NCBI RefSeq assembly: GCF_000237865.1
Contig: NC_017459.1
Location: forward strand, 2,370,001-2,402,000
DNA length: 32,000 nt
Source: Haloquadratum walsbyi C23
Lineage (GTDB): Archaea > Halobacteriota > Halobacteria > Halobacteriales > Haloferacaceae
Direction: 5' to 3'
In this document: positions 2,876-21,886 of the stretch, one piece after another
How the letters are laid out: each line of letters opens with the position of its first letter
How positions within the stretch are numbered: position 1 is the stretch's first letter
Translations under genes and position numbers: made by a program
Notes under the pieces: model-generated
What the model was told of the DNA's origin: nothing
Database searches by the model: none
What the model saw: the letters and a program-made list of their open reading frames with translations, nothing else

Positions 2876-2894
2876 TTATATCTGATTCTGTTTA

Positions 2895-5160: not shown

Positions 5161-5209
5161 ATCATTATCTTCCCACAGATATACTTAATTCCCACACTCT
5201 CAATAATAT

Positions 5210-7537: not shown

Positions 7538-7544
7538 GAGTGAT

Positions 7545-8282
7545 CTACTTTTGTGTCACATCAGCATTCAGTTTGTGTAAATCTCGATCATCAATCACCG
7601 AGACTGCGTCTCTTATCGGGAGCGTATCCTCATACTCAACTCGGTTATAAATCTCTCGAAGCAGTTCATAATCATCGGCTTCATCCAAGGTTATCCGGAG
7701 ATCGGTTCGATCCTGCATCCAGGATCTATTAAATATCTCTTCAGAAGTCACAGAAGCAAGATTGAACTGATCATCGTTTTCCCGATAATATGTGGTGACG
7801 TGTTCGCGGTGATGTGGCTCTTTCGCGTTTTCATGTATGTGTTTGAAACTCTCATAACTGAATGCCTCGACATCAAGACCACGAGGGAAAGTACGCTCAA
7901 CGGTATTTGAGCAATAATCCACATTCTCTGTAGCGAGGCGGTCAACCACAGCATCAATCACATCCCAATCGATCAACGGACAATCACCGGTAATTCGTAC
8001 TACTGTCTCTGCATTCGCTCCTGTAGCCGCAGAGAGCATTCGATCAAGCACATCATCTTCACTCCCACGGAACACTGTTGCGCCAGCGCGATTAGCATAC
8101 CGAGCAATAATATCGTCAGCTGTTTTCGTTGAGGTAGCAACGACGACTTCGTCTATCGTATCCGCCTCTTGTACTCTCTGTATATCATGTGTTAGCACGT
8201 GAGACCGCTCAAGTGGCAACATCATCTTTCCTGGTAGCCTCGTTGATCCCATCCGAGCTTGAATAATTGCAACAGTTTTCAC
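7545..8282 (-). CDS. Acylneuraminate/SpsF-type cytidylyltransferase (CMP-nonulosonate synthetase candidate)
   Basis: MKTVAIIQARMGSTRLPGKMM N-terminus and ITGDCPLID motif. Lies 8 bp downstream of the PseG-like gene on the same strand. Confidence 0.8.
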   Translation of the reverse strand: MKTVAIIQARMGSTRLPGKMMLPLERSHVLTHDIQRVQEADTIDEVVVATSTKTADDIIARYANRAGATVFRGSEDDVLDRMLSAATGANAETVVRITGDCPLIDWDVIDAVVDRLATENVDYCSNTVERTFPRGLDVEAFSYESFKHIHENAKEPHHREHVTTYYRENDDQFNLASVTSEEIFNRSWMQDRTDLRITLDEADDYELLREIYNRVEYEDTLPIRDAVSVIDDRDLHKLNADVTQK

Positions 8283-8885
8283 GGATACTCAATCTCGCGG
8301 CACCCTCAAACAGTTTGCTCATTTATTTCGATGATGTTTGTCTTATAGATAGAAGGAAACGGTTCGATTACTCCGATCTCATCTCCGTTCATATGGTGAG
8401 CGTACCAATCGGATATAATAGATTTAAACCCGAGCAATTTGAAATTAAATCCAGATCAAGGAGGTCACCAGCGAGATGCTTTACACATCAGTAGATTGGG
8501 TCCTCTATCCCGTAATGAAACTGGAACAAGAGGGACCGAAAATCTCCAACAATCATATGCAGGAAAACTGGGACCGGAAAATCACTCGGTGCGAGGTGTG
8601 TGTCTCCACAGGCACAGAGATAGGCTGAGTCTCACATCATCGACTTCCGATTTGCGTATGTAGATTGCTCGGATTCCCAGTCGGACGCTAAGGCAAGTCG
8701 GGAAATGGCGAGACAACTTTCAGATGCAGTTGATGATCAAACAAATATTTCCCGCGTGGGTATCGGTGCCGCGGACTATCGAGACATCACATGGGAGTTT
8801 CTTGATACACATGACAGTGATGTATTTGTCGCCTGTCGCGTTCTGAGTATATAAAAACGGCGTGAGCCGTTAGTGACGGCCCGTA

Positions 8886-10130
8886 ATGTCTATGCAATTT
8901 GATTCAGCAAGGCCGTCAGAAGACGTAACGGACGCCTCTAACATCAATTCTACTGATCTCGTCGCTGACGAACTGTACTCGCTGCTTGACGAAGTCGACA
9001 GCGAGTCGATTGCCGATGAATTCAAGATTGGGCTCCATTCCGACAAACACGACTTCACAAACCACGTCAAGACGGCTGTTCGTGAGGGTCTTGACCCCTC
9101 CAGCTCACTCGCTGAACTTGAGGATAAGACCATTGTCGACGACTCACTCGAACACATGCCTAAATCACGGTTTTCAGAACTCACGAACGACCGCGACTAC
9201 TGCGCGGTCGTTCAACTCCTCTTCGAAGTACTACACACACCACAGTTGTATCATCAACGTGGAGTTCAACGAAAACGACTGGAGTGGATGACACGAGGTG
9301 TTGTCGCTGTTGATGCCACAAACCTCGAACTTACGCGCTCTGTTGTCGTCTCAGACGAGTTCGTCGGAGACGACGACAAGGTCTACAAGATCGACACAGA
9401 CGATGGTGGTCTCGAACTTCACTGCGCAGCACGTGTGGATGGAGAAAACAAACATCCACTCGACGCTACTGTTACAGAGGGCGACACCCACGAAAGCCCG
9501 CAGTTCGATCTCCTCAAGGAAGATGTCGAGGTCTTTGCAGACCTCGACTCGGTAATCTGGGTCTTTGACCGCACATACACGCGATATCTACGGTTCTGTG
9601 AGATCAAGCATAGTGACAATGATTTTGTCACACTGATGTACTCAGACGCTTGATTTGAACTCAGTGAGACACTCGAAGAGTTCGAGGTCACCGTCTCAGG
9701 GAACAACACCGCTCAGCCGACTCACTCAGATGAGGAATCAACACGACGGGTACAGGTTCGTGATGAACGAATTGAGTGAGCTGAGACTGGCGAAGAGTTC
9801 CGCAGGATTGTGCTAGAAACGCCCGATGGAGAAGAGATTGAGTCCCTGACGACGCTGGCGTCGTCAGAGTACGATCCAATCGACGTGATCAACATCTACA
9901 CACTACGGACAGTGATTGAGATCCTCTTCCGAGAGTGGAAACAGTACCTCAACATCGAGAACTTTCACTCGAAATCGCTGAACGGCGTGTTATTCGAGCT
10001 GTTCTGTGCATTGATTGGATATATGCTGGTCGTATGGTTTCGCCAACGCCACCCAGTCAAGGGTGGCGTGGCGCGTGCTATCCAGAAAGTTCGCACCTTC
10101 TGGAATGAGACGCTGGATTCATTCGGCTAA
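8886..10130 (+). pseudogene. IS4-family (ISH8-like) DDE transposase interrupted by two in-frame TGA codons
   Basis: ORFs 8886..9653 and 9810..10130 share one frame. The stops are TGA at 9651-9653 and 9777-9779, and the sequence between them also reads through in that frame. DDE candidates are VAVDATN and WVFDRTYTRY. The IS4 signature Y-2-R-3-E-6-K is present in YTLRTVIEILFREWK. Confidence 0.8.
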
Positions 10131-10439: not shown

Positions 10440-10660
10440 CTCAAAATCCGCTACTATGGTGGTGCGACGGGGGCTTCAACGGGCGGAGTGAAGCCGCCGA
10501 CCTCCACGGACTCCTCGCGGAGTTCGGGTGTAATTCCAGCCGACCCCTCACGGGGAAGGTCGGAGGGAATTAAATTCGCCTGCGGGTGCTGTGCAGACCC
10601 CAAACGGTGAAGCCTCGGGGCTTGACCCCGAGGTACTCCACTATCACCACCCGGATAATA
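10440..10660. other. GC-rich, hairpin-dense non-coding stretch (candidate structured RNA or element remnant)
   Basis: Stems: 10472-10478/10489-10495, 10507-10514/10519-10526, 10540-10547/10552-10563 and 10613-10620/10626-10633 (8 bp perfect). Overlapping ORFs encode basic, non-halophilic peptides. Confidence 0.35.
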
Positions 10661-10749
10661 ATCAATTCTCTCTTGACAACTCCAGTAATGGATCGAGTGC
10701 CGACGCATATTCAATCGAGCGCATATCGACCCAACGGGCACTGCTCACT

Positions 10750-12555
10750 TCAGAACTCCTCTAACAGGTCGTCCAGCATCGGCCGCAGTTTGTACTTCTG
10801 ATAGTGTTCGTCCCGCATCGTCTCAACATATTCACGCCACTCCTCTAGTTCACCAGCCGCCTGTGCCGCTTCGCCCGCGCGCCTGAGCCACCGGACGGCT
10901 GTCTCGTAGCTATCGTGTTTGCCCTGTTCGACAATCGGTTCAGCCTGGGCTTTGCACGTGCTAATTACCCAGTCCGGTCGCTCCGCAATCACCGCCTGGA
11001 CGACGGGTTCGATGACACTGGTCCGACCGCTTCGCTTCGCAAGGGTGATTGCGTCGTCGTACTCGTTCTCACGGATGAACACCTCTGCTGCCCGAGCAGC
11101 AGTCTCGCCACCGAGCTGTTCAGTGCGGAGATATTCCAGCAAGTCGGTCTTGATCGTCTCCCAGTTGTCGGCAGCGAGTTCTTCGACCGCCTCGAAGGCA
11201 CTCACTGACGGACTCGTCTCGAACGCAGTGATGGCTGCTTCAAGTGCGAGGCTGTCTTCACCAGCGCTGGCTGCCCGATCACGGAGCCATTCCGCCAGCG
11301 CGTCTTTTCCGTATTCCTCGACTGTCAGTCCGTGTTCGGCGACAGTGAAGGCCGCATCCGTGTGGCCATGTTCTCTGAGCGTCTGTGCCAGCGATAAAAG
11401 TGAGTTGGGGTCCGACAGGTGTTCGATTCCATACTCGACCGCCTCCTCGATTCGTCCCATCCCGACCAGCATCTCCGCGTGAGCGAGGTCGGCTCCTGCT
11501 GCTCGCGAGAAGTTGAGATACGCGTTAGGACGGTCCTGACGGGCGAGGATACGCAGACGGACATCAATCACGTCGGGTGCGTACCAACTCCGCTTGTCTT
11601 CTTCGAATTCCCCATGATTGAGGTCGCCCTCCAATGCATGCTGGACACGGTCGTTGTCCCACCCCTCTATTACCGCGTCGGCAGCAGCACCCAGGACCGT
11701 GCCGCTCATGAGATGCGCGAACGTCGTACTCTCGTCCCATTCTCTCAGTTGCTGCTCCCAGTCAGCTCGCTTCTCTTCGGGTAGATCGGCTATGAGGACT
11801 GCCTCGACGAACAACGTACCAAGATCGCCGATCGTCTCGAAGAGGTCCGGGACATCATGTGGCAGCAGCCCGGTCCATCTGTTGGTCACGAGGACCTCTG
11901 TGGTGGCTTCGAGAATGTCGAGTGCCGTCTTGCCGTCACCAGCCTCAATGGCCAGCCGTGCCTGTTCGAGAAGTTCGTCCAGTTCCCCGGACATCCGCTG
12001 TGCTTCTGCATGGGCATCGTTATGACCGCGCTGGCTCGGCTTTGGCAATGCATGCTCGGCCTGCCGCCGAATCGACTCCAAGTTGACCGAGATTGACTCG
12101 TCAGTGGCTACCTCATCGGCGATCTCACTGGGTTCGAGACGGGTTTCAAACCAGTCAGCCACGTCTGACCGCTCCGCAGCGAATTCGACGAGCAACTCTT
12201 CGAGAGTCTCTCGATCCGCATCAGCGAGCAGGTCTGACAGCGGAGGCTGGGCACGCACACGCTCGGGGTTGCGAAGACACGTCAACAGCACGGCAACCCG
12301 GTGTTTGCAGATTCCACCGTGGTCGTAGGGACAGGAACAGTCCGTGTGAGCAACGCCGATGTCGTCGAAATTAATTGTGATTGTGTAGGGCTGGTACTGG
12401 CTTCCCTCGACATCAGCCCTGACTCTGTCTCCGCGTCGCACCACGTCACTGACTGCTTCCTGCTCGTAGTACGACTGTCCCCGCTGGTAGGAGTTGGATC
12501 TGGCCAGTTCCCTGATCGTTGCTTCCGTCAGGGGTGGCCACTCGTCATCATTCAT
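10750..12555 (-). CDS. SWIM zinc-finger protein with long alpha-helical (TPR-like) C-terminal region
   Basis: CxC..CxH SWIM signature in HTDCSCPYDHGGICKHRVAVLL near the N-terminus. 601 aa, acidic. Its GC is visibly higher than the flanks, and several long antisense shadow ORFs run through it. Confidence 0.82.
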   Translation of the reverse strand: MNDDEWPPLTEATIRELARSNSYQRGQSYYEQEAVSDVVRRGDRVRADVEGSQYQPYTITINFDDIGVAHTDCSCPYDHGGICKHRVAVLLTCLRNPERVRAQPPLSDLLADADRETLEELLVEFAAERSDVADWFETRLEPSEIADEVATDESISVNLESIRRQAEHALPKPSQRGHNDAHAEAQRMSGELDELLEQARLAIEAGDGKTALDILEATTEVLVTNRWTGLLPHDVPDLFETIGDLGTLFVEAVLIADLPEEKRADWEQQLREWDESTTFAHLMSGTVLGAAADAVIEGWDNDRVQHALEGDLNHGEFEEDKRSWYAPDVIDVRLRILARQDRPNAYLNFSRAAGADLAHAEMLVGMGRIEEAVEYGIEHLSDPNSLLSLAQTLREHGHTDAAFTVAEHGLTVEEYGKDALAEWLRDRAASAGEDSLALEAAITAFETSPSVSAFEAVEELAADNWETIKTDLLEYLRTEQLGGETAARAAEVFIRENEYDDAITLAKRSGRTSVIEPVVQAVIAERPDWVISTCKAQAEPIVEQGKHDSYETAVRWLRRAGEAAQAAGELEEWREYVETMRDEHYQKYKLRPMLDDLLEEF

Positions 12556-12898
12556 GCTGGTGACTGCTACGAGGGAGGCAGTATTATGTTCTTTTCTGTG
12601 TCGTCCGTGAGCAGTGTGGATACCGGGTGTCGAACGGTTTCAGGAGTTGCTCAACTAGTGGAGTCGGGGTCGTATCTCTCGGCTGCTCGCTTGAGGTCGA
12701 ATTGGAATCGCTCGTCGGATTTTTCGAGTCGCTTGGGATGAACGGTCTGTCCGAGAACTGTCATCAATCTCTCGCGCTGGGCGTCTGTGATCGTGACTGA
12801 TAGTGATTAGTTCGAATAGTTTCACTGACGATGTCGAATGACGCGGGTTCAGCGGCTCTCATCACCGACACGGATAATCACGGCGGTAAAGACTTGCA

Positions 12899-13150
12899 CT
12901 AATCACTATGAATAGTCAACTTCGGTCTGTGGTTCCCAGTGCTGGGGAAATCGGGGAAGTCCTGTTCAAAGGCTGGTTCCGGTGATCTGAGAAACATCAA
13001 GTCTTCTCTGGTATCGGGCGACTGAAGCAGTCGTTTGAGAAGCGTCAGGGCAGCCTCGGGATCAGCGAACACGACGTGTTTTAGCTTTCCCAATGGCCCA
13101 AGATTCACGATCCGTATCGGTTCGGTCAACGATCTGATCGAGAACCCCAA
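12899..13150 (-). CDS. Hypothetical protein, possibly the C-terminal part of a frameshifted gene
   Basis: 83-aa ORF in the GC-rich patch. An upstream out-of-frame ORF (ATG at 13260) reads MSLGEREDELLDTLERSL..GSRAFGDWGSRSD and then stops. Confidence 0.3.
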   Translation of the reverse strand: MGFSIRSLTEPIRIVNLGPLGKLKHVVFADPEAALTLLKRLLQSPDTREDLMFLRSPEPAFEQDFPDFPSTGNHRPKLTIHSD

Positions 13151-13256
13151 TCTCCGAATGCCCGACTGCCCATCCCACCACCGGAATACGTACGGCAGGT
13201 CAGTGTCAATGACCGCTCCAGAGTGTCCAGCAATTCGTCTTCGCGTTCACCGAGGC

Positions 13257-13448
13257 TCATGAGTTCAAACGCAGATCCTCGTGGGACGCGTCGATATCGC
13301 GGTCATACTCATCGGCGATCATCTCCAACGCCGGCTCATAGTTTACCCGGTACTCCAATATGTGCTCGATTGCCTCGTCCAACGGAATGACCGAATTGCC
13401 GTCGATCCACTCGCGAGTGATCCCCCCACTCGTCGGGGATAATGACAA
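13257..13448 (-). CDS. Hypothetical small acidic protein
   Basis: 63-aa ORF with a TTG start. Its stop overlaps (ATGA) the ATG of the next small ORF at 13260. Confidence 0.3.
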   Translation of the reverse strand: MSLSPTSGGITREWIDGNSVIPLDEAIEHILEYRVNYEPALEMIADEYDRDIDASHEDLRLNS

Positions 13449-13509
13449 TGAGTTATGAGATAGTGGGTACTCACTGGGATTCTCACACAGTGTTCATATC
13501 GGTAGGTGA

Positions 13510-13647
13510 CACACCCCACTTTCGAAATGAAATTCGAAACATAGGTAACATTATAGAGATAGCACTCACACACCATCTTCGAAATGAAATCCAAGATATA
13601 ACTAACATAATAAAGATATCACTCACACACCATCTTCGAAATGAAAT
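13510..13647 (-). repeat. Three ORB-1 boxes spaced exactly 57 bp apart
   Basis: CACACCCCACTTTCGAAATGAAAT (13510-13533), then CACACACCATCTTCGAAATGAAAT at 13567-13590 and 13624-13647. Confidence 0.9.
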
Positions 13648-13797
13648 CGGTTCTCTCAGTGAAAAATACAGTCAAACCCGATTTCGAAGATCTACTGTAG
13701 TTACACCACTGTTTCATCAAAGAATTTCATCTCAAAAAATCCACTTTTATCTCTCATGAGGGGTCTCGTGTTCAACTCGACACACGGCAATATTGTG

Positions 13798-14045
13798 TTT
13801 CATCTCGATGAAGGGGTATGAAGGGCGGGTTGTTTCTCAAGTTTGTCAATTTCATTTCGACAGAGGGGTGTTCATTTCATCGATAGTTCACCATGATATG
13901 AACTCTGATGAGATTTCATATCGATTGAGGGGTGTCTGAGCTGATGTTCACCATTTCATATCGATTAAGGGGTTTTCATATCGACTCCGCCCGTTTCATT
14001 TCGATGTCGACCCCTTCATTTCGACAAAGGTTCTCACAGAAGGGG
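13798..14045 (+). repeat. Array of eight ORB-1 cores T(T)TCAT[CTA]TCGA, several followed by a G-string
   Basis: Cores begin at 13798, 13850, 13875, 13914, 13954, 13974, 13994 and 14015. Examples: TTTCATTTCGACAGAGGGGTG and TTTCATATCGATTGAGGGGTG. Confidence 0.88.
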
Positions 14046-14059
14046 TCCCAAGAGATCAT

Positions 14060-15415
14060 ATGAAAGATAATGACTCTGACTTGCGGCAGCCAAATGCCGA
14101 GTCTGGTTCTGGTTGGACACAGGAGTCCGAATCGTCTGTGGTGGATAGCATCCTCGATGGTGACGCACAGACTGTGTTCGAAAATAAGGACCTCGTGGAC
14201 TCGAGTACGATTGTTGATCAAGACAGGATCTACGGTCGCAATGAGCAACTCGCTGCTGAGGCGCGGGCGTTTCGGGATACTCTCGATGGTGAGCGACCAC
14301 CAGATCTGCTTCTCTACAGTCCCAGTGGAACAGGCAAGACGCTGACTGTCAAAGCCGTCGCGAGCAAAGTAAAAGAACGGACCCAAGAGAGTGGTATCGC
14401 GTTCGACTTCGTCGCGGTCAATTTCAAGACGATGGAATCTCACACACTCGACAGGGCAGTGTGGAAGTTGGGTCATCAGACGGCACAGAAAGCAGGCGTG
14501 GGTTGGGATGTGCCTCGATCAGGTGTCTCGACAGATATGAAATACACTCGACGCTACGAGATTGTCAACGAGCACTTTGACTCGCTCGTATTCATCCTCG
14601 ACGAGATCGACGCGCTGACCGGTAGCACGGGCGCAGACGAACCGGCCTACTCCCGGCTTCTCTACAGTCTGAGTCGGGTCATGTCCGAACAACATGTTGA
14701 TACGCAACTATCGACAGTAGTTATAACTAACTACCCGAAGTTCCGCGAGAATCTGGACAGTCGGACAGACAGCTCCTACAACCCGAACGGGATTCACTTC
14801 TCTGACTACGACGCTAACGAGCTCGTCGAAATCCTTGAACGACGTCGAGATGCGTTCAGAGACGACGCCCTCGAGGATGGCGTCATCGAGATTGTGGCTG
14901 CGTATGGTTCCCAAAACGAAGGTGATGCACGTCGAGCAATCGATCTACTCCGGGATGCTGGTGAGATTGCGAACCAAGCGGGCGATTCCACGGTCACTCA
15001 AGACCACGTCAGGTCAGCAAACCAGTCTGTAATGAAGAATCGGGTTCTCGAGATTGTTGGCGGGATATCTGTTCAAAAGAAGTTGTCTCTGTGCGCGGCT
15101 GCGCTTGTCGCAAAAGAGAATGAGCGAGTGGCTCCGAGTCCTGTAGTGTATGATATCTACAAAATTCTCTGTGAGGGGAACAACATGAAAATGTACACGC
15201 AGGAAACGGTAAATAGTCACATCAACAAAGCTGAAACATACGGTGTTCTGGAGAGTGAGCGATCAAGTTCCGGGTTTAAATCAGGAGTCCATCTCGTCTT
15301 TACATTCACCGAGCCCGTTGAGGCTGTCTTGGAAACATTGAATGAAGATAGCCGGCTTCAGGATATTCCGACCGAAGAGCTTGGAAAGGTAGTGAAGAGA
15401 CGCCTTCGAGATTAG
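14060..15415 (+). CDS. orc1: Orc1/Cdc6 AAA+ replication initiator (paralogue 1)
   Basis: Walker A SPSGTGKT, Walker B VFILDEID, sensor region NEGDARRAIDLLRDAGEIA and a C-terminal winged-helix-like region. 451 aa. Confidence 0.9.
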   Translation: MKDNDSDLRQPNAESGSGWTQESESSVVDSILDGDAQTVFENKDLVDSSTIVDQDRIYGRNEQLAAEARAFRDTLDGERPPDLLLYSPSGTGKTLTVKAVASKVKERTQESGIAFDFVAVNFKTMESHTLDRAVWKLGHQTAQKAGVGWDVPRSGVSTDMKYTRRYEIVNEHFDSLVFILDEIDALTGSTGADEPAYSRLLYSLSRVMSEQHVDTQLSTVVITNYPKFRENLDSRTDSSYNPNGIHFSDYDANELVEILERRRDAFRDDALEDGVIEIVAAYGSQNEGDARRAIDLLRDAGEIANQAGDSTVTQDHVRSANQSVMKNRVLEIVGGISVQKKLSLCAAALVAKENERVAPSPVVYDIYKILCEGNNMKMYTQETVNSHINKAETYGVLESERSSSGFKSGVHLVFTFTEPVEAVLETLNEDSRLQDIPTEELGKVVKRRLRD

Positions 15416-15626
15416 TATTCACGAGTTTCAGACAAACGATGGTGAGGTTGTCACGCGACCAGAACCACAACTAAGAGAAAGCAATCTTAAATGGCGATCG
15501 ATTGACCTATTCAGCGGCGCCACTCGATTTCTTGAGGACGGATTTTTTCCCAACGACACGAAATATCCTGAGTTGATGTTTTCATAGCGATTAACCAACA
15601 GCTACCGGAGTATATCATACGTTAGC

Positions 15627-15744
15627 ACCCATTCACACCGAGGGGGTCAAATCAAGAGCCCCATTCACACTGAGGGGTGCTGGATAGCGATTAACAGAAC
15701 AGAGCTTTTAGTTTAGAGGATATCATCGACATTAGTCTCGGAAC
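15627..15744 (+). repeat. Segmental repeat R2a carrying two ORB-2 boxes
   Basis: CCCATTCACACCGAGGGGG (15628-15646) and CCCCATTCACACTGAGGGGTG (15659-15679), followed by GGATAGCGATTAACAGAACAGAGCTTTTAGTTTAGAGG. Aligns with 19948-20056 plus 20222-20240. Confidence 0.88.
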
Positions 15745-16099
15745 GTGATATTTCAATACTGTGGCGTTCATTATACGCGAACTATTCATCAACTACATTC
15801 AAGATATTGAATAAGATAGGAACAATCTCGGTCTGACTCACGTTTTCGTCTGTAATCTCCGTGTGTCGTCGCTAACAACGTGTGCTTACTTGGAGACGTT
15901 GTCGAGATCGTCGAGGTATCTTGATTGGACGATAGGCTTCCTTTGTCCCTATCAGAAAGCTCACTGAAAGAACGCTGGGGCAGAGTCAAAGAGCCGGTTC
16001 GGGAGAGGGGAGATTGTCCCGTGTGTCTAGGTGTCCAAGTGTCAGAGTCATATGAAGGCTGCCAACGAGAAAGTGACAAGTATGTATAATATTTGTAAA

Positions 16100-16278
16100 A
16101 ATAACAACAAGTTATGAGATAGTGGGTACTCACTCGAATCCTCACACGGTGTTCATATCGGTGGGTGACACACACCATCTTCGAAATGAAATCGGTTCTC
16201 TCAGTGAAAAATACAGTCAAACTCGGTTTCGAAGATCTACCATAATTATACTACTGTTTCATCAAAGAATTTCATCTC
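16100..16278 (+). repeat. Segmental repeat R1b, a one-unit copy of R1a (13441-13733)
   Basis: Shares GTTATGAGATAGTGGGTACTCAC..GTTCATATCGGT.GGTGACACAC..TTCGAAATGAAATCGGTTCTCTCAGTGAAAAATACAGTCAAAC..TTTCATCAAAGAATTTCATCTC with R1a. It is 114 bp (two 57-bp units) shorter. Confidence 0.9.
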
Positions 16279-16375
16279 GAAATTAATTATCTAGGAACAA
16301 TCTCTAGGAGCCTCCATACAGTCCGACACAACTGCCACAAGATATTAGTTCTTGATTCACGTATCATGAATTACG

Positions 16376-17002
16376 ATGGTGGTAACAAATGTCCCGGCTG
16401 CGAACGAGAACGGCTCGAAAGAGGGCACCGCACGCTCCTTTATTGCAGCCTCAGAGATACTGGTGAATCCCAACATCGCCAGAGTCTATACTGACATCCT
16501 GCTGAATCAGCCTACTACGAACAGCAGTATCGAGCGTAGACTCGATCTTGCCGGAAGTACAACCTCAATGCGGGTTGGAAAGCTCAAAAACTTAGACATT
16601 GTCGAGGATGTCAGTAGCGGGAAAGAGAGCCAGCTCCGGACTGATTCACTATTTCTCCCCGTTGGGGAGGAAGAGACGCGGATACTGTTTGACCCGCTTA
16701 CGATCGCCGCTTACGGTGCAAGCGGCGAGGTCAGTGAGATCGAACTCTTCGTTGATCGGCACGGCAAGGCGAAGCTGCTGATGGCGGTTGAGCAGACACG
16801 GGCATATCTCAGTGGCGAGGTGACTCGTCGTGGAGCAGCAGACCGCCTCAATGTTGATGAGATCGAGGCTATCAGCATCACGCAGGCGCTAGAGCCAATC
16901 ATTGCCCTGTTTGTCAAAGCAGGGCTCATCGATGATTCCTTCGAGCACGACGTACATGATCGGAAGATTCGAAACACTCCGTACGTGTTTGAGCAGGAAT
17001 GA
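16376..17002 (+). CDS. Winged-helix (ArsR/MarR-like HTH) DNA-binding protein
   Basis: The N-terminal segment NPNIARVYTDILLNQPTTNSSIERRLDLAGSTTSMRVGKLKNLDIVEDV looks like a wHTH. 208 aa, acidic. The stop overlaps the next ATG (ATGA). Confidence 0.55.
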   Translation: MVVTNVPAANENGSKEGTARSFIAASEILVNPNIARVYTDILLNQPTTNSSIERRLDLAGSTTSMRVGKLKNLDIVEDVSSGKESQLRTDSLFLPVGEEETRILFDPLTIAAYGASGEVSEIELFVDRHGKAKLLMAVEQTRAYLSGEVTRRGAADRLNVDEIEAISITQALEPIIALFVKAGLIDDSFEHDVHDRKIRNTPYVFEQE

Positions 17003-17304
17003 GCGATCGGCCGAAATTAATTGACTCTTCACCCCTCTACCCGATCCCGGATGCACTCCTCGTTGACTCGAGCGTCTTGGGTGGAATCGGGCGATCTACT
17101 CCAGAACGACGACAGCTAATCAACTACATTCAGTCGAATGATAAGCAGTTGTACGTCTCTACTGAAGTGGTCAAGGAGTTGAACAAGAAATGTGCTGGTC
17201 CCTACGGTGTCAATGATTGGCTTGATCCAATACGTAACGAGGACTGGATTGCTGCCTTCCAGAGCCGGATTACGGTACGGGAATCCGTGACGACCCTACC
17301 GTGA
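16999..17304 (+). CDS. PIN-like domain protein, N-terminal part (possibly half of a frameshifted gene)
   Basis: LLVDSSVL (first PIN Asp) and VSTEVVKEL (Glu). 4-nt overlaps at both ends (ATGA at 16999, GTGA at 17301). Confidence 0.45.
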   Translation: MSDRPKLIDSSPLYPIPDALLVDSSVLGGIGRSTPERRQLINYIQSNDKQLYVSTEVVKELNKKCAGPYGVNDWLDPIRNEDWIAAFQSRITVRESVTTLP

Positions 17305-17558
17305 GCGAGATGATTGAGGAAGCACACAGAGAATTAGCCAAGCTCGAACAGGAGCGAGAAGATGAACTCCCGAAAACGGACGCCAAATTCGCCGGTAATC
17401 TCGTTCAAATACGGGTGTCTGAGGGTCACGATTCCGTGGGGTTGATCATCGACGACAGGAACGCAGAGCGCGCACTGTCCCAAGTAGTCAGTGAGACGGA
17501 GTACGAGCAATTCTTCCGGATACTGAGGGGACCAGAGGTATTAGAAGAGATACAATAA
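17301..17558 (+). CDS. PIN-like domain protein, C-terminal part
   Basis: KTDAKFAGNLVQI and GLIIDDRNAERAL resemble the third and fourth PIN acidic motifs. This frame is open upstream to 17238, overlapping the end of the previous ORF. An alternative ATG is at 17310. Confidence 0.45.
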   Translation: MSEMIEEAHRELAKLEQEREDELPKTDAKFAGNLVQIRVSEGHDSVGLIIDDRNAERALSQVVSETEYEQFFRILRGPEVLEEIQ

Positions 17559-17603
17559 CGTTCCCCTCTTCATTGGGGTCACCCTCCTCGCGCGGCTTGT
17601 GAG

Positions 17604-17909
17604 ATGAGTATCGATGAGCAGTGGTACGAAACTCAGCTGTCGGTCCCGGTGGTCATCGTCGGCGCGAAGAGCGTCCAAGATGCAATCAACATTGCAGTTG
17701 CGGAAGTCGGTACGCGAACGAAGTCAACAGAAGCACGATCGTCGGAGATCCTCGTCCAAGATGTTATCTATCCCTCATATGTGTATGAAATGAAGCCGGC
17801 GCTCTGTGTGACGGATCTTGCTCTGGTTGCACTGACTGTTATTGTCGAGATGCTGGCAGAGTCTCATGAGGAGAGCGAGCGTATCGCGAAGTGCGAGTTG
17901 TGCGTCTAG
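17604..17909 (+). CDS. DUF555/UPF0212-like small archaeal protein, divergent paralogue
   Basis: The pattern VQDAINIAVAEVGTR ... DLALVALTVIVEMLAESHEESERIAKCEL parallels the UPF0212 family. The position of the family's CPxCG zinc knuckle reads YPSYVYE. Confidence 0.55.
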   Translation: MSIDEQWYETQLSVPVVIVGAKSVQDAINIAVAEVGTRTKSTEARSSEILVQDVIYPSYVYEMKPALCVTDLALVALTVIVEMLAESHEESERIAKCELCV

Positions 17910-18055
17910 ATGAGGGACATCCCGCTCACGGTGTTGGAGACGCGATCGGTTGACGGGGGGAGGATGAAAAGCCAGAAACAAACTTCGCGGATCTTGGTCG
18001 TGAAGTCTAATCCAGAAGCGAAACAAAGCAAACGCAAGGATAATTGCTATAACAA

Positions 18056-18159
18056 CCCCCCAGAGTGTGAATGGGATCCGTCAACGACACCCCTCGGTGT
18101 GAATGGGTGAATAGATAGCGAATTAAGATAACCACACCCACACCCCTCAGTGTGAATGG
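18056..18159 (-). repeat. Three ORB-2 boxes in inverted orientation
   Basis: CCCCCCAGAGTGTGAATGGG (18056-18075), CACCCCTCGGTGTGAATGGG (18088-18107) and CACCCCTCAGTGTGAATGG (18141-18159). Confidence 0.85.
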
Positions 18160-18525
18160 TATACCACCGCTCATACAAGATTCAATCTCTCCTGTTCAAT
18201 GTCGGTACGTCACAACTGGTGACCTTCCTTCACTTCGCTCAGCGACCGGCTGCGGCGCAAGCGCCTCGTCTTGTAGAGATGTTTTACTTGATTAGTTGTT
18301 TTTGATAATGTATAATAAAACTACCTACTGGTGTGGTAGCGGTGGCGTTGCCAGTGCAGTTGAGCACACTGGACAGACAACACAGCAACAAATACCGCCC
18401 GATGGTACGGATATCCTTGGGTATAGACAGTCAAAAGCATGTTCGAGACAGTACTGCTGTGTGTTCTCTCTTCGGTTAAACCGGTGTACGAGTGTTGAGT
18501 TAGCATTATTGTGTCCTATGGTGGA

Positions 18526-18544
18526 CCATTCACACCGAGGGGTG
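18526..18544 (+). repeat. ORB-2 box facing the 18056-18159 set across an AT-rich segment
   Basis: CCATTCACACCGAGGGGTG, 10 bp from the orc1 paralogue-2 stop. An AT-rich run lies at about 18270-18330. Confidence 0.8.
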
Positions 18545-18553
18545 TGGGAGGTA

Positions 18554-19840
18554 TCACCCCATCAGCTCTTGAAGTTCTGATGTCGAACTGATCAGTCCTC
18601 TCCGGGTGCTTCCTACTTCACCCTGTAACGAGTATGATCTGAACTTCCCATCATCTCCGCCCTCTTTCTTCTTCGACTCAAGAACACCTGTTGTCACGTG
18701 TTTATTTAGCAGCTCAAGAGCACGATTGTATCCTTTCGGCTCAACATGGACATCTTTCGCGACTGTTTGATACACTCGATGTATTTCTGAAGTTCGAAAC
18801 CATTCTTTCTCCGAATTGTTCCGGTCCAGCCGAGTAAGTGCAAACAGGAGTAGCTTCCCTGATAATGGTGTTCCCTTGACCATTTCCATAAATAGTTCTA
18901 CTTCAACGAGTTCGTCAGCTTCAGAGACGTGGTCCGCCGTGACGATCTCGCAACCCTCTTCATCGGCAACCTCACCAGCGTTTCGTAACAACCGAACTGC
19001 ACGGCGGGCGTCACCATGTTCATCAGCCGCGAGCTCGGCCACTTCCGAGATCACATTGTTTTCCAGTACTTCCTGGTAAAATGCGTCACGGCGATTATCC
19101 AGAATAGAGACAAGCTGATCCTCCTCATAGGGTGTGAACGTCCAGTGATTTGGCTGAAGCGTTGATTGAGCTCTTGAGTCAATATCACCCTTGAACTCAA
19201 TATCGTTTGAAATGCCGATCGTCACCACAGGAAAGTTAACATCATCTTTCGATTTAGCCCTTGACAGTGTGTAGAGAATCTCGTTGATCTCGTCGTGTTT
19301 ATCAATCTCGTCAATTATCACAACGAGCCCACCCGGGAACTCTTTTTTGACAATAGGCCATAGTTTCTTGTTACGATAATGTTCCGCCGAGAGACCTAAA
19401 GATGGGACGTCGACTGGATCGTTGGCTTTGGCATTCACTTGTTCTGCTATCTTCCGAAAAGTGGAGGTGTATGTCGATATCGGGTCTGGATTAACGTACG
19501 CCGTAACAATCGATCCGTCAGTCCCTTGTGTCGTTACCTCAAGTCGTTCACAGACGTGCCTAGCGACCAGTGTCTTTCCGGTTCCTGTCTCACCCCACAT
19601 CACGATATTGTCCGGAACCTCGTCTGTCCTCATCTTACGGAGATTCTTAGCTAAGGATTTGATTTTATTATCACGTCCAACAATCCGATTCGCATCTGGG
19701 AGATTATCTATTTCGAGCAACCACGGTTTCTCAAAGATTTTTGAGTTATCTTCATCGTTCTGACCGTCGACACTCAAAATCTCGTCAACAGTTGTCTGGG
19801 TTGTATTGTTATCGGTCACATTGAGGACATCTGATTCCAT
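18554..19840 (-). CDS. orc1: Orc1/Cdc6 AAA+ replication initiator (paralogue 2)
   Basis: Walker A GETGTGKT, Walker B VVIIDEID, sensor DEHGDARRAVRLLRNAGEVA and a C-terminal winged helix. 428 aa. Confidence 0.92.
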   Translation of the reverse strand: MESDVLNVTDNNTTQTTVDEILSVDGQNDEDNSKIFEKPWLLEIDNLPDANRIVGRDNKIKSLAKNLRKMRTDEVPDNIVMWGETGTGKTLVARHVCERLEVTTQGTDGSIVTAYVNPDPISTYTSTFRKIAEQVNAKANDPVDVPSLGLSAEHYRNKKLWPIVKKEFPGGLVVIIDEIDKHDEINEILYTLSRAKSKDDVNFPVVTIGISNDIEFKGDIDSRAQSTLQPNHWTFTPYEEDQLVSILDNRRDAFYQEVLENNVISEVAELAADEHGDARRAVRLLRNAGEVADEEGCEIVTADHVSEADELVEVELFMEMVKGTPLSGKLLLFALTRLDRNNSEKEWFRTSEIHRVYQTVAKDVHVEPKGYNRALELLNKHVTTGVLESKKKEGGDDGKFRSYSLQGEVGSTRRGLISSTSELQELMG

Positions 19841-19947
19841 TCACATAAAGGTAACCGACCCTCAATGTGATAGGTCAATCCCTATTCACGTTTTAATACG
19901 ACTGAGAGTACAATTCTGTATGTATATAAATTCTAGAAACTGAAGGG

Positions 19948-20240
19948 ACCCATTCACACTGAGGGGGGGTCAAATCAGGAACCCCATTCACACTGAGGTG
20001 TGCTGGATGGCGATTAACAAAACAGAGCTTTTAGTTTAGAGAATATCATTGATATTCGATCTTATGAAGTACATTGTTGGTGGCGAGCAGTCGGGCGATT
20101 TTTTGTATTTCTCTACGGCACCTGAGCTTCCCAGAACGGGAGTGAGACAGCGTGAAAGAACCGATCTACCGAATTTACTCAGTTCGGAGAGTCATCACCA
20201 ACAATCTGCTTCACAAGAGCGTTGATATTAGTCTCGGAAC
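19948..20240 (+). repeat. Segmental repeat R2b (two ORB-2 boxes) interrupted by a MITE
   Basis: CCCATTCACACTGAGGGGGGG (19949-19969) and CCCCATTCACACTGAGGTGTG (19982-20002). Collinear with R2a except for the 165-bp insert plus 8-bp duplication. Confidence 0.88.
20057..20221. mobile_element. 165-bp MITE with about 30-bp imperfect terminal inverted repeats and an 8-bp target-site duplication
   Basis: TSD TTGATATT at 20049-20056 and 20222-20229. Left end CGATCTTATGAAGTACATTGTTGGTGGCGA matches the reverse complement of the right end, CGCTCTTGTGAAGCAGATTGTTGGTGATGA (24/30). The paralogous empty site in R2a is TCGACATT followed by AGTCTCGGAAC (15726-15744). Confidence 0.8.
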
Positions 20241-20349
20241 TTCTCACCGAGGAGATTTCGCTCGACGGGATCGCCGTCATTGCGAACGAGACGCATTCGT
20301 TCGAAATGATATCTGTGAGAACCGGGAGTTTGAGCTTCTGGAAAACACG

Positions 20350-20609
20350 CCCACCCCACTGGTTCCGCTGTTAGCAGATTGAAATGGGCGTACAACTAGA
20401 CAGAAACTGTATCCTGATTATTACTGACGATAGTAATGATGTAGTCGGAATAATCTGTCCTAACATGAGTTCAGTACTTCCAACATACCCCACTGGTTCC
20501 GCTGTTACTGAAAAATAATTAATCAGCCAATAGAATCAACCGAGTATGTCTGACAACTGAGCAGTTACAAACGATAGTGTGATTAACAGTGGAAGTGGTG
20601 GGGTGGGTG
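20350..20609. repeat. Three canonical haloarchaeal-type ORB boxes (ORB-3); the inner pair is inverted around a 75-bp AT-rich spacer
   Basis: CCCACCCCACTGGTTCCGCTGTTA (20350-20373), ATACCCCACTGGTTCCGCTGTTAC (20485-20508) and, inverted, TAACAGTGGAAGTGGTGGGGTGGGTG (20584-20609). Confidence 0.8.
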
Positions 20610-20662
20610 TGTTCAACGATTAGACAGCAAAGACATCTGATATGTCGGTTCAGTTTATATGC

Positions 20663-20914
20663 TCAGACCTTGAGTTCATGATCAGCGCATCCCCTGAGTG
20701 TCAGTGGAATATTGTATATACGATCGGTTTTAAACTCGGTCACTGTCGATGTGTATATAGCTACTCTCGACTTTGCGTCTTCATTCATCGTTGTAGGAGC
20801 AAGATCAAGACAGTCAGAATGGCTTGTTAGACCTGCTGACACGAGTTGACAGTCACGATGATAGATTATCGAAGACGTTGGTTCGTTTTCAAATTGTGGC
20901 TTCAGTTTGAGCAC
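20663..20914 (-). CDS. Hypothetical protein (weak)
   Basis: 83-aa ORF with no recognisable motif and a non-acidic composition. Confidence 0.2.
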   Translation of the reverse strand: MLKLKPQFENEPTSSIIYHRDCQLVSAGLTSHSDCLDLAPTTMNEDAKSRVAIYTSTVTEFKTDRIYNIPLTLRGCADHELKV

Positions 20915-21225
20915 AGCGCATCAGTGCAGGGAAAATGTATACGGCGTTTTATTTTCCCAAGACGAGACACTAAGCTTTCTTTATGAACGTGAACCGACCC
21001 AGTGGAAGGTATAGATGAATAAGATGAAAGTGAAAATTAACGGCATGTTCATCGGTCAAAACAGCGCTAAAGAGTCGGGAACCACGCTCGAGTAGTATCT
21101 CGAGTTCGCGTTTGCTGAAAGCACAGAGAGTATCATTGAGACGGTTTGAGAAGACCCACAGTTGGACGATGTGTACTACGATGAACTCCGCACTGTTGTG
21201 AACGCACAAGTTAATCGCTAGAGTA

Positions 21226-21496
21226 GGATTGACCGAAACAAATCGATAGGGGTGCGTCTGTGTGGTAGGACTGACCGAAACAAATCGATAGGGGCGTGTC
21301 TGTGTGATGGGGCTAATCAGAACAAATCGATAGAGGTGTGTCTGTAAGATATAATTGACCGAAACAAGTCGATAGGGGTGTGTCTGTGTGATGGGACTGA
21401 TTGGAACAAATCGATAGAGGTGTGTCTGTGTGATGGGACTGATTGGAACAAATCGATAGAGGTGTGTCTGTCTGATAGGATTACACAAAACAGATC
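21226..21496 (+). repeat. Tandem array of six 42-bp iterons plus a degenerate seventh
   Basis: Units start at 21226, 21268, 21310, 21352, 21394 and 21436. The core AA(A/G)TCGATAG(G/A)GGTG recurs at exactly 42-bp spacing (21240, 21282, 21324, 21366, 21408, 21450). Confidence 0.92.
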
Positions 21497-21812: not shown

Positions 21813-21886
21813 AGCCAGGGGTGGGATTTGAACCCACGAAGTCTCGATTACAAGTCGAGTGCATGCACCGCCCATGCTCCCCTGGC
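21813..21886 (-). tRNA. tRNA-Thr: tRNA-Thr (anticodon UGU), no encoded CCA, discriminator U
   Basis: Cloverleaf by hand: acceptor GCCAGGG/CCCUGGC, D stem GCAU/AUGC, anticodon stem CUCGA/UCGAG with loop CUUGUAA, 5-nt variable loop, T arm GUGGG-UUCAAAU-CCCAC. The D-arm core is atypical (G8, G14, C21). Confidence 0.75.

Follow-up and report, generated by a model that had tools for sequence, protein, structure and literature searches.

Two intact predicted origin modules and leftover boxes of two modules without initiator genes in 8 kb of Haloquadratum walsbyi C23

The window analysed here is a 32-kb stretch of Haloquadratum walsbyi C23 DNA, and all positions are counted from its first nucleotide. 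An 8-kb part of it holds two intact predicted origin modules together with the leftover boxes of two modules that have no initiator gene (Table 1). The two Orc1/Cdc6 genes, orcA and orcB, had been noticed in an earlier reading of the letters alone (hereafter the sequence-only reading), and their coordinates and domains are confirmed; that reading called the pair divergent, which is true in sequence only (32% identity between OrcA and OrcB), since orcA on the plus strand and orcB on the minus strand face each other and the orientation is thus convergent. The island itself has been described before, with oriC2 and oriC3 published as predicted origins: these are the labels given to Hqrw_3381 and Hqrw_3385, respectively, in the genome paper of C23 (PMC3119063), and the catalogue of Wu et al. 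2012 (PMC3528665) prints and highlights both ORB-2 and ORB-3 boxes for the orthologue HQ2959A of the sister strain HBSQ001, terming two box types beside a single gene "surprising"; positions 18020-20660 match the HBSQ001 sequence printed there. What is added here is that each of the four repeat families appears to be the cognate box set of a separate Orc family.

Table 1. Features of the replication island and its right border (window positions)
Feature	Position	Strand	Basis and remarks
R1, left half of ORB-1 origin	13441-13737		three 57-bp units, then AT-rich stretch
ORB-1 origin, predicted oriC2	13486-14040	+	3 minus ORB-1, AT-rich DUE candidate, 8 plus ORB-1
orcA (Hqrw_3381), 451 aa, intact Orc1/Cdc6 initiator	14060-15415	+	Pfam AAA+, Cdc6_lid, Cdc6_C winged-helix
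R2 copy 1	15627-15745	+	orphan ORB-2 pair and ~70 bp of orcB-upstream sequence
R1', second R1 copy with single 57-bp unit	16100-16282		inverted ORB-1 pair around AT-rich stretch
DUF7437	16376-17002	+	Pfam; passenger gene
PIN_halo	16999-17558	+	Pfam; passenger gene
DUF555	17604-17909	+	Pfam; conserved neighbour of orcB
ORB-2 cluster downstream of orcB	18056-18548		minus copies 18060, 18092, 18145; plus copy 18526
orcB (Hqrw_3385; HQ2959A orthologue), 428 aa, intact Orc1/Cdc6 initiator	18554-19840	-	Pfam AAA+, Cdc6_lid, Cdc6_C
R2 copy 2	19948-20056	+	ORB-2 pair upstream of orcB (19950, 19984)
MITE, 165 bp, inserted in R2	20057-20221		26-nt terminal inverted repeats
Orphan ORB-3 origin	20344-20613		direct copies 20353-20372, 20487-20506; AT-rich stretch; inverted hybrid 20585-20604
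orcD remnant, last 68 codons (aa 377-443)	21015-21218	+	tblastn 60% identity, E = 9e-18 to J07HQW1 OrcD
ORB-4 array, six phased direct copies	21224-21480	+	core GAACAAATCGATAGrGGTGTGTCTG
tRNA-Thr (TGT)	21813-21886	-	right border of variable region

The ORB-1 origin (consensus ATTTCATNTCGAnnnnGGGGTGT) stops 20 bp short of the orcA start codon. A search for TTTCATHTCGA tolerating at most one mismatch gave 16 matches in the 32 kb against 3.5 expected, a number reached in 0 of 100 shuffles; the three copies one way and eight the other that had been read from the letters are borne out as minus-strand copies at 13522, 13579 and 13636 and plus-strand copies spanning 13725-14024, and two more lie inside R1' (16181, minus; 16270, plus). 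Each of the three 57-bp units of R1 (13510-13680) carries one minus-strand ORB-1, and GC content drops to 30-34% across 13540-13740. The R1 segment also lies to the left of orcA in strain J07HQW1 (L019 59-602, 97% identity), and a layout of 2 minus and 4 to 10 plus copies is found upstream of OrcA orthologues in Halorubrum coriense, Halomicrobium salinisoli and Halobiforma lacisalsi; the supplement of PMC3528665 has the same ORB-1 layout at Htur_2559. An H. walsbyi protein at NCBI matches OrcA at 100% identity, and the OrcA family is mostly chromosomal, with only 2 plasmid records at 80% identity or more. The cassette of OrcA and ORB-1 is intact in C23, with inverted ORB-1 sets flanking a putative AT-rich DUE just upstream of the gene.

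OrcB, to judge from its relatives, belongs to a megaplasmid-type initiator family: proteins 93-94% identical to it occur in Halorubrum and Haloplanus, and 29 haloarchaeal plasmid records match it at 80% identity or more, among them Cdc6m of H. marismortui, which ORB-2 also flanks. The ORB-2 box (CCATTCACACYGAGG) has eight copies in the island (seven exact, one with two mismatches; 0.14 expected), in agreement with the earlier count. The cluster downstream of orcB is their sole inverted arrangement, with a spacer of ~360 bp containing an AT-rich dip and with the copy at 18526 just past the orcB stop codon, and it likely holds the DUE of the predicted oriC3. Halorubrum 48-1-W and a plasmid of Haloplanus HW8-1 have an identical layout, and in both the pairing of orcB with DUF555 is found again as well, and the cluster is printed for HBSQ001 in the supplement of PMC3528665. 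The boxes of R2 copy 2 are direct relative to the copy at 18526, so that orcB is bracketed by direct ORB-2 repeats. The cassette of OrcB, ORB-2 and DUF555 is intact in C23, with ORB-2 copies flanking the gene and with the inverted pair and putative DUE downstream of it; the adjoining PIN_halo gene is frameshifted near 17250, judged against the intact 181-aa ORF of J07HQW2.

The third box family, ORB-3, has the three copies first reported for it (two direct, one inverted; 0 expected), and its cognate gene, orcC, is absent from the ORB-3 locus in C23. Genes of the OrcC family are flanked by ORB-3 in Halorubrum, Haloarcula and Natronorubrum, and in two saltern metagenome contigs, L005 and L006, orcC lies between two direct ORB-3 copies exactly at the site of the C23 copy at 20585-20604, which alignment reveals to be a hybrid. 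These comparisons suggest that ORB-3 is a predicted origin orphaned by the loss of a third orc gene, and no box set for OrcA or OrcB. Recombination between the two direct copies bracketing orcC would have removed the gene and left one hybrid box, with the upstream origin surviving; a gain of orcC through recombination at an ORB would explain the hybrid just as well as such a loss.

The 42-bp repeats next to the tRNA gene are present in the six phased copies described before (6.1 copies, 82% matches and a score of 318 by Tandem Repeats Finder; six occurrences of the core AACAARTCGATAGRGGYG against 0 expected). They do not form a separate class of iterons, as had been supposed, and are instead ORB elements, the array that usually lies downstream of orcD, the gene of a fourth family, lost in C23. 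In J07HQW1 an intact orcD stands at the corresponding place and the array begins 2 bp past its stop codon, and J07HQW2 has a longer orcD 3' remnant with a different deletion endpoint. Phased direct ORB-4 arrays lie 3' of OrcD orthologues in Natronococcus, on a Salarchaeum plasmid and on a Haloarcula marina plasmid (8 copies, 47-bp period), and on two further plasmids weak blastn matches of the array directly follow OrcD orthologues. In five other replicons the 18-22-nt box that forms the core of the array accompanies OrcD genes, in inverted sets on their upstream side and in phased direct sets on their downstream side. The OrcD family is common on haloarchaeal megaplasmids.

In the mechanism that we propose, each Orc would bind its own boxes only, and MCM would be loaded at the inverted boxes around the DUE. 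Where direct ORB arrays lie 3' of the gene, they would act as initiator sinks, as was shown experimentally for oriC2D of Haloarcula hispanica, with its downstream ORB-rich negative regulator (PMC3936714); for H. walsbyi this titration role is inferred, as is which of the predicted origins fire. With their initiators gone, both the ORB-3 set and the ORB-4 set of C23 most likely persist as inert relics. We regard it as unlikely that they are still functional, be it as dormant origins or as initiator sinks for a protein acting in trans, either one of the OrcC/OrcD families with its gene at another site (e.g. on plasmid PL100) or OrcA, which is 43% identical to OrcD, the two being mutually closest among these families. 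The inverted-repeat and AT-rich architecture of ORB-3 is intact in C23, HBSQ001 and L004, the motif TCGA...GGGGTGT is common to ORB-1 and ORB-4, and a dormant origin of Haloferax mediterranei can be activated (PMC4595724). The ORB-4 array is kept in 5/5 orcD-lacking sequences examined, in 3 to at least 6 copies (L004 3, L005 5, C23 6, L006 at least 6; J07HQW1, with orcD, has 3), and the higher counts in most orcD-lacking contigs could hint at retained function or reflect simple slippage. However, haloarchaeal origins depend specifically on the co-located cdc6 gene (PMC3936714), no NCBI-named H. walsbyi protein is among the best 120 relatives of OrcC, the spacing from TCGA to the G string is unequal in ORB-1 and ORB-4, and the C23 ORB-4 copies have drifted to 82% matches.

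The overall reading that we favor, at a probability of about 0.8, is that the locus is a strain-variable chromosomal region by tRNA-Thr in which self-contained replicator cassettes accumulate and then decay, each consisting of one orc1/cdc6 gene and its own family-specific ORB boxes, and in which cassettes, or traces of them, from no fewer than four Orc families are found. The suggestion in the sequence-only reading of a stack of separate replicator modules, some of them fossil, is upheld by the orcC/ORB-3 and orcD/ORB-4 traces. Alignment with related strains, which that reading had called for, reveals cassette content and layout that differ among C23, J07HQW1, J07HQW2 and contigs L004-L006, and the boxes are initiator boxes linked to orc genes, not dispersed generic repeats. 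The H. walsbyi locus is in this respect like the variable regions of Haloarcula, hotspots in which origins are acquired, lost or disrupted (PMC4441112): cassettes come, go and erode, and the two intact modules and two leftover box sets make it a clear but ordinary case of such turnover.

A rival account of the same stack is that plasmids or proviruses integrated site-specifically at tRNA-Thr and then decayed. The island does adjoin tRNA-Thr, initiators of the OrcB and OrcD families are typical of megaplasmids, OrcB homologues occur in mobile-element-like contexts with primase-polymerase or ParA, the DUF7437/PIN pair is toxin-antitoxin-like, and strains differ in cassette content. This route of entry nevertheless seems improbable: there is no integrase, capsid or partition gene within 13441-21496, as had been noted before, and no partial tRNA-Thr duplicate anywhere in the 32-kb window; 0/4 ORB families are clustered in IMG/VR viral contigs, and OrcB is unmatched in the phage collection. 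Junctions are seen at ORB repeats, R1 and the MITE instead of at the tRNA. Most OrcA orthologues are chromosomal, and MoaA, which adjoins the OrcA orthologue in Halobiforma, also adjoins the island in J07HQW2.

The segmental duplications that had been described are both present, R1 as 13441-13533 and 13624-13737 against 16100-16282 (88-93% identity) and R2 as 15627-15733 against 19948-20056 (about 90%). They do put foreign boxes beside the other module, as claimed, with the ORB-2 pair of R2 copy 1 downstream of orcA and the ORB-1 pair of R1' upstream of the DUF7437-PIN-DUF555 genes, and origins can be regulated through titration by an ORB-rich region (PMC3936714). It is very unlikely, however, that these boxes let OrcA act on the origin or expression of OrcB and vice versa, as in the cross-regulatory node of the sequence-only reading. 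R1' sits directly upstream of the DUF7437 gene, and the same junction occurs in J07HQW2 (L024), where the 5.2 kb leftward hold Mrp and MoaA and no orcA cassette; the orcB module is absent from J07HQW1 in the region compared, and the interleaved arrangement is not seen conserved among the strains compared. R2 copy 1 is slightly closer to the orcB upstream sequence of Halorubrum sp. 48-1-W (90.7%; L010 5679-5796) than to the local copy (89.8-89.9%), as expected if it is a vestige of a separate cassette. The misplaced boxes lie at recombination joints, which are not the same from strain to strain, and R1/R1' and R2 are better read as such joints or as vestiges of cassette turnover than as regulatory wiring.

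The 42-bp repeats were also considered as a neutral minisatellite or as the iterons of a plasmid origin that uses a Rep-type (non-Orc) initiator, given their strict head-to-tail phasing and an array in C23 that has neither an AT-rich DUE nor an inverted partner, but this is effectively refuted by a core that is the OrcD-linked box of the five other replicons and by the orcD remnant directly 5' of the array, which is present at one locus only in each H. walsbyi genome and has no Rep gene nearby.

Two further features, the orcD pseudogene remnant and the MITE, had been missed in the sequence-only reading. Metagenome contexts L001-L003 were excluded from the evidence as possible assembly chimeras, since they break precisely where the MITE ends. 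The MITE is flanked by an 8-bp target duplication (TTGATATT; 20049-20056 and 20222-20229), its empty site is preserved in R2 copy 1 at 15721-15743, and extra or polymorphic copies are found in L003 and L006.

Each of the four families of initiator-binding boxes in the island (ORB-1 to ORB-4) is linked to an Orc1/Cdc6 gene in at least three other replicons, and on this comparative basis each is predicted to be cognate to a different Orc family: ORB-1 to OrcA, ORB-2 to OrcB, and ORB-3 and ORB-4 to OrcC and OrcD, whose intact genes are found in other members of the population. The inventory drawn up in the sequence-only reading stands: both Orc1/Cdc6 ORFs carry AAA+, Cdc6_lid and Cdc6_C winged-helix domains (Pfam), with 32% identity between OrcA and OrcB; TTTCATHTCGA with at most one mismatch (ORB-1) has 16 matches against 3.5 expected; CCATTCACACYGAGG (ORB-2) has 8 island copies where 0.14 would be expected; ORB-3 has 3 copies with 0 expected; and the 42-bp unit is present in 6.1 copies (Tandem Repeats Finder score 318), its core occurring 6 times against 0 expected. 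The duplications R1 and R2 and the tRNA-Thr gene were likewise recovered, and the tRNA was the sole match when 12.5-22.5 kb was scanned with Rfam (E up to 0.1).

Features of the Orc/ORB island of C23 and its flanks (positions in the window unless another locus is named)
Feature	Position	Strand	Remarks
Sugar-modification cluster	305-8282		low GC (~36-49%); DegT aminotransferase, NeuB, PEP-utilising enzyme, ATP-grasp, metallophosphoesterase, cytidylyltransferase
Orc/Cdc6-like AAA+ fragment	8534-8836	+	Walker A GTGKS; in-frame stops; best tblastn E = 1.6e-8
IS element	8886-10130		adjoins the AAA+ fragment; DDE transposase split into two ORFs
SWIM zinc-finger protein gene	10500-12555	-	601 aa; block of 58-60% GC versus ~47% elsewhere in the window
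Segment left of R1	12500-13450		no match among the nine loci compared
R1	13441-13737		
ORB-1 boxes	13522-14024	both	3 minus, 8 plus copies
AT-rich dip amid ORB-1	13540-13790		30-39% GC (30-34% over 13540-13740); the 3 minus and 8 plus copies lie around it
orcA	14060-15415	+	
R2 copy 1	15627-15745		uninterrupted MITE site at 15721-15743
R1' (copy of R1)	16100-16282		
AT-rich dip at R1'	16180-16300		
DUF7437, PIN_halo, DUF555	16376-17909		passenger genes
PIN_halo gene	16999-17558	+	frameshift near 17250, giving ORFs of 101 and 85 aa
Inverted ORB-2 junction	18145-18540		inverted pair 18145(-)/18526(+)
AT-rich dip in ORB-2 pair	18260-18340		35% GC
orcB	18554-19840	-	
R2 copy 2	19948-20056		
Small ORFs	20000-20900		no family matches; set aside as spurious
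MITE	20057-20221		165 bp, non-coding
Divergence of L001-L003	20220-20222		outer MITE end
ORB-3 inverted pair	20487(-)/20585(+)		around the AT-rich stretch
AT-rich stretch in ORB-3 pair	20380-20580		37.5% GC
Site of orcC in L005, L006	between 20584 and 20604		orcC at 2453-3703 of L005
172-aa ORF through the 42-bp array	20970-21488		no family match; set aside as spurious
orcD remnant	21015-21218		last 68 OrcD residues (60% identity, E = 9e-18)
Extra MITE copy in L006	near 21021-21028		
tRNA-Thr(TGT)	21813-21886		
Complete OrcD cassette, J07HQW1	L019, 2765-6325		6 upstream ORB-4, orcD (3516-4847), 3 phased ORB-4
ORB-4-like box pair, Halobacteriales archaeon YIM A00013	L018, 5118-5378	inverted	~220 bp apart; between eRF1 and a ferredoxin gene
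ORB-4-like box pair, Actinarchaeum halophilum	L022, 2049-2298	inverted	~220 bp apart

The window has an overall GC content of ~47%, and its AT-rich dips are located where unwinding elements would be expected. Inverted boxes surround an AT-rich region in the ORB-1, ORB-2 and ORB-3 sets; the ORB-4 array of C23 consists of direct copies only, with no dip within it in the GC profile, whereas a complete inverted ORB-4 set is present in H. walsbyi J07HQW1. An intact Orc1/Cdc6 gene adjoins the ORB-1 module (orcA) and the ORB-2 module (orcB), but the ORB-3 set has no gene beside it and the ORB-4 set a 68-codon remnant; since both lack an adjacent intact initiator gene, we regard the ORB-3 and ORB-4 sets of C23 as relics of haloarchaeal origins rather than as members of that class.

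The OrcA module has close counterparts in other genera. Halorubrum coriense, Halomicrobium salinisoli and Halobiforma lacisalsi encode orthologues of 75-90% identity, each gene lying downstream of a long intergenic region with 2 minus and 4-10 plus TTTCATTTCGA...GGTGT boxes in the layout seen in the window, and Htur_2559 is listed as an origin of the same type in the supplement of Wu et al. 2012 (PMC3528665). The OrcA family is rare on plasmids, with only 2 plasmid records at ≥80% identity, and the MoaA beside the Halobiforma orthologue is 79% identical to the MoaA beside the island in J07HQW2, a likeness compatible with an old chromosomal position. A GNAT gene was rejected as a synteny marker: the GNAT protein next to the island has no orthologue among those neighbouring OrcA elsewhere, which give 34% identity across 61 aa or no match. 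OrcB has relatives of 93-94% identity in Halorubrum and Haloplanus, and both Halorubrum sp. 48-1-W and a 200-kb Haloplanus plasmid share the orcB layout of the window: several direct ORB-2 copies upstream, orcB, one copy just past the stop, a spacer of ~380 bp, 3 inverted copies and a convergent DUF555 gene. It follows from this shared layout that ORB-2 copies meet in inverted orientation only downstream of orcB, at a junction that has an AT-rich dip.

For ORB-3, the corresponding gene survives in the saltern population. Exact copies of the OrcB protein are present in saltern metagenome contigs, and contigs L005 and L006 carry an extra orc gene (orcC, 416 or 394 aa) at the site of the orphan boxes. 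OrcC has relatives of 74-88% identity in Halorubrum sp. AJ67, Haloarcula and Natronorubrum, whose genes are flanked by TAACAGCGGAAnnnGTGGGGTGGG, the ORB-3 element. In L005 and L006 two direct ORB-3 copies bracket orcC; in C23, its sister strain HBSQ001 and contig L004 there is a single copy at that point, which by alignment is a hybrid of the left flank of the "downstream" copy and the right flank of the "upstream" copy, with the crossover within their shared 24-nt core. Recombination between direct repeats would leave just such a structure, and the hybrid is most simply read as a deletion of orcC; it could alternatively have arisen by integration at an ORB. Deletion of orcC would explain why two unrelated ORB types lie beside one orc gene, which Wu et al. 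2012 (PMC3528665) called surprising: one of the sets would be that of a neighbouring orc gene still carried by some members of the population. The site thus offers a concrete, testable example of an initiator apparently lost via recombination between the gene's own flanking binding sites.

The tRNA-Thr gene beside the island raises the possibility that a provirus or integrative plasmid inserted there site-specifically. A Pfam scan of the island ORFs found no integrase, and no blastn-short match to tRNA-Thr elsewhere in the 32 kb exceeded 12 nt, hence no att duplicate was recognised, within a search whose span the far end of an element could exceed. IMG/VR viral contigs scanned for the four box families gave zero or single chance matches, without an orc gene and with the wrong GC content, and OrcB had no tblastn match in a collection of phages and archaeal viruses. 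A standard integrated element, which the sequence-only reading had also set aside, is an unlikely explanation of the island; the plasmid affinity of OrcB and OrcD shows the cassettes to be of plasmid origin, whatever their way in. At ≥80% identity OrcB has relatives in 29 haloarchaeal plasmid records, including H. marismortui Cdc6m, and OrcD has relatives in 9 megaplasmid records at 80-90% identity and in 43 at 60-80%; identity to the plasmid orthologues is 82-94% for OrcB and 85-89% for OrcD. The megaplasmid modules (H. marismortui Cdc6m and those of Haloplanus, Salarchaeum and Haloarcula marina plasmids) have the same boxes in the same arrangement as the H. walsbyi OrcB and OrcD modules, but those of H. 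walsbyi lie in the main chromosome with no other part of a plasmid backbone, and the island contains neither ParA nor integrase.

Between related strains the layout of the island varies; it is a mosaic whose cassette content differs from locus to locus. In C23 the order is R1, ORB-1, orcA, R2, R1', DUF7437/PIN/DUF555, ORB-2, orcB, ORB-2, MITE, orphan ORB-3, orcD remnant, six ORB-4 copies and tRNA-Thr; L005 and L006 have this order with orcC present. J07HQW1 has R1, ORB-1, orcA, ~0.6 kb of unmatched sequence, an ORB-4 origin, orcD, three ORB-4 copies, a 5'-truncated orcC, ORB-3 and tRNA-Thr, with no orcB module in the region compared, and J07HQW2 has GATase, MoaA, Mrp, R1, DUF7437, an intact PIN gene, a 3' remnant of orcD and at least three ORB-4 copies, the locus ending inside the array. 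The junctions at which the loci diverge fall at R1, at the ORB arrays and at a MITE, so R1' and R2 copy 1 are most plausibly joints left by recombination, or vestiges; R2 copy 1 matches a Halorubrum orcB upstream region at 90.7% identity, slightly more than the local copy (89.8-89.9%). It had also been proposed that the locus is a cross-regulatory node of OrcA and OrcB boxes, and in C23 the boxes are interleaved as such a node would have it; the interleaving is not conserved between strains, and the proposal is unsupported for that reason.

The MITE has all the features of its class, with 26-nt terminal inverted repeats (85% complementarity) and an 8-bp target duplication, TTGATATT; it is inserted in R2, the upstream segment that carries ORB-2 boxes, and the uninterrupted site is kept in R2 copy 1. 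MITE families have been documented in H. walsbyi (PMC3119063), and in the metagenome contigs the element has an extra copy in L006 and two copies in L003. Contigs L001, L002 and L003 encode a protein identical to OrcB, each with a different, unrelated sequence to its right and all without the MITE target duplication, and represent either MITE-mediated rearrangements or assembly chimeras; because all three break exactly at the outer MITE end without that duplication, they were left out as evidence of mobility.

The 42-bp repeats, which the sequence-only reading had set apart as iterons, are ORB-4 boxes of OrcD. Scanning one representative genome per species with their core returned a single locus in each of two further H. 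walsbyi genomes and clusters in Natronococcus. A gene for a 443-aa Orc lies amid the boxes in Natronococcus jeotgali and Natronococcus sp. A-GB1, with 3 direct copies past the stop and inverted sets upstream; in J07HQW1 an intact 443-aa orcD has 6 upstream ORB-4 boxes (2 minus, 4 plus) and a stop codon 2 bp before a three-copy 42-bp array. The J07HQW1 protein is 85% identical to that of Natronococcus and 43% to OrcA. The same architecture recurs on a Salarchaeum japonicum plasmid and on a Haloarcula marina plasmid with 8 downstream copies at a strict 47-bp period; downstream arrays in the orthologous replicons range from 3 to 8 copies, with both 3 and 8 seen on plasmids, and by blastn the C23 array gives weak matches immediately 3' of OrcD orthologues on two further plasmids. 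The C23 array starts ~6 bp past the end of the orcD remnant, and J07HQW2 retains a longer 3' remnant. From this linkage in other replicons and the adjoining remnant, we infer that the array is the downstream ORB-rich region of a lost orcD gene. A Rep-type iteron origin, which phased tandem repeats might suggest, is refuted by the same ORB-4/OrcD evidence, and no Rep (non-Orc) initiator gene was found beside the repeats.

Arrays of the 42-bp unit differ in length: J07HQW1 and L004 have 3 copies, J07HQW2 has at least 3, L005 has 5, C23 has 6 and L006 has at least 6, which are more uniform than those of C23. The complete OrcD cassette of J07HQW1 is fused directly to the truncated orcC, which lacks ~27 codons and its upstream origin, and the cassette order there is reversed relative to C23 and L005. 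Inverted ORB-4-like box pairs also occur in a Halobacteriales archaeon and in Actinarchaeum halophilum; neither 8-kb locus contains an orc gene, so the pairs add nothing to the linkage evidence, and they may be orphan origins in other lineages.

The locus itself is already known. The C23 genome paper (Dyall-Smith et al. 2011, PMC3119063) describes two complete, inward-facing cdc6 genes, Hqrw_3381 and Hqrw_3385, with ori-like motifs, and terms oriC2 and oriC3 "predicted" or "potential"; orcA and orcB fit these two genes, a match made by description rather than by annotated record, and a homology search finds OrcA 100% identical to the NCBI "Cdc6/Cdc18 family protein [Haloquadratum walsbyi]". 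Wu et al. 2012 (PMC3528665, Fig. 3 and Additional file 4) place two candidate origins beside HQ2959A in HBSQ001, with ORB-2 as "Origin I" and ORB-3 as "Origin II", the latter box being common to Hlac_3512; the segment they print, HBSQ001 2258070-2260718, is nearly identical to window ~18020-20660. The published origins are thus at the same locus as ours. In their accessible text, neither paper assigns ORB-3 to a lost orc gene, and the 42-bp array, the orcD remnant and a cross-population H. walsbyi comparison are absent from both. The ORB-4 core was not found in the 2012 catalogue of 15 genomes. What the present comparison adds is the putative assignment of ORB-3 and the 42-bp array to lost orcC and orcD cassettes, a probable ORB-ORB recombination scar, an ORB-4/OrcD family lying outside that catalogue for which phased downstream arrays are a conserved trait, and evidence of cassette turnover at the population level. 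The island is a solid but ordinary case with no new type of system, and since the locus was published as predicted oriC2/oriC3 and it is well established that variable regions gain and lose origins, it does not change the field. Because H. walsbyi is dominant in salterns worldwide and deeply sampled by metagenomics, the locus could serve as a natural time series of how archaeal origins are gained and discarded.

Such gain and loss is described in Haloarcula, where orc-adjacent origins in chromosomal variable regions are repeatedly acquired, lost and disrupted, and where ORB-Cdc6 linkage is reported to be conserved over long distances and origin structure over short ones only (Wu et al. 2014, Genome Biol Evol, PMC4441112). 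The H. walsbyi locus has the same gain and loss of origins in a variable region, but it holds at least four families in 8 kb and its losses leave orphan ORB clusters; moreover, one loss appears traceable to recombination between direct ORBs bracketing the gene, whereas the agents reported for Haloarcula are transposases and insertions/deletions. The origins of Haloarcula hispanica each require the cdc6 gene located beside them (PMC3936714), and by analogy OrcA/ORB-1 and OrcB/ORB-2 would be the two potentially active modules of C23, while the ORB-3 and ORB-4 sets would be inert relics unless a matching initiator is encoded elsewhere. The same paper describes oriC2D, an 11-ORB region downstream of cdc6E without ARS activity that holds oriC2 back, probably through titration of Cdc6E (Wu et al. 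2014, NAR, PMC3936714). The ORB-4 arrays share with oriC2D direct boxes of one family immediately 3' of an initiator gene, and an ORB-2 cluster likewise follows orcB; by this likeness, the phased ORB-4 arrays and the ORB-2 boxes on either side of orcB may act as control or titration sites. The role of oriC2D was shown experimentally, whereas its C23 counterpart is known from sequence and lacks its initiator gene, and strict phasing at 42 or 47 bp sets the OrcD family apart from oriC2D.

As orc genes bracketed by direct ORBs can be looped out or captured at ORBs, a wider proposal can be framed, which we consider a long shot: that ORB arrays are recombination substrates driving cassette turnover and that orphan arrays are kept, even expanded from 3 to at least 6 copies, through a function in trans, either as origins in a dormant state or as sinks that take up plasmid-borne or paralogous initiators. 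Were this true, megaplasmid compatibility in a natural population would have a control point in a graveyard of chromosomal origins.

The PIN_halo gene, frameshifted in C23, is a single intact 181-aa ORF in J07HQW2 (88% identity), and together DUF7437 and PIN_halo look like a decayed toxin-antitoxin-like pair. The AAA+ fragment next to the IS element, ~5 kb left of the island, is probably another orc pseudogene and suggests that the hotspot extends leftwards. The GC-rich block around the SWIM gene looks like foreign DNA, and the sugar-modification cluster at the left end of the window resembles an island for nonulosonic-acid (sialic-acid-like) biosynthesis.
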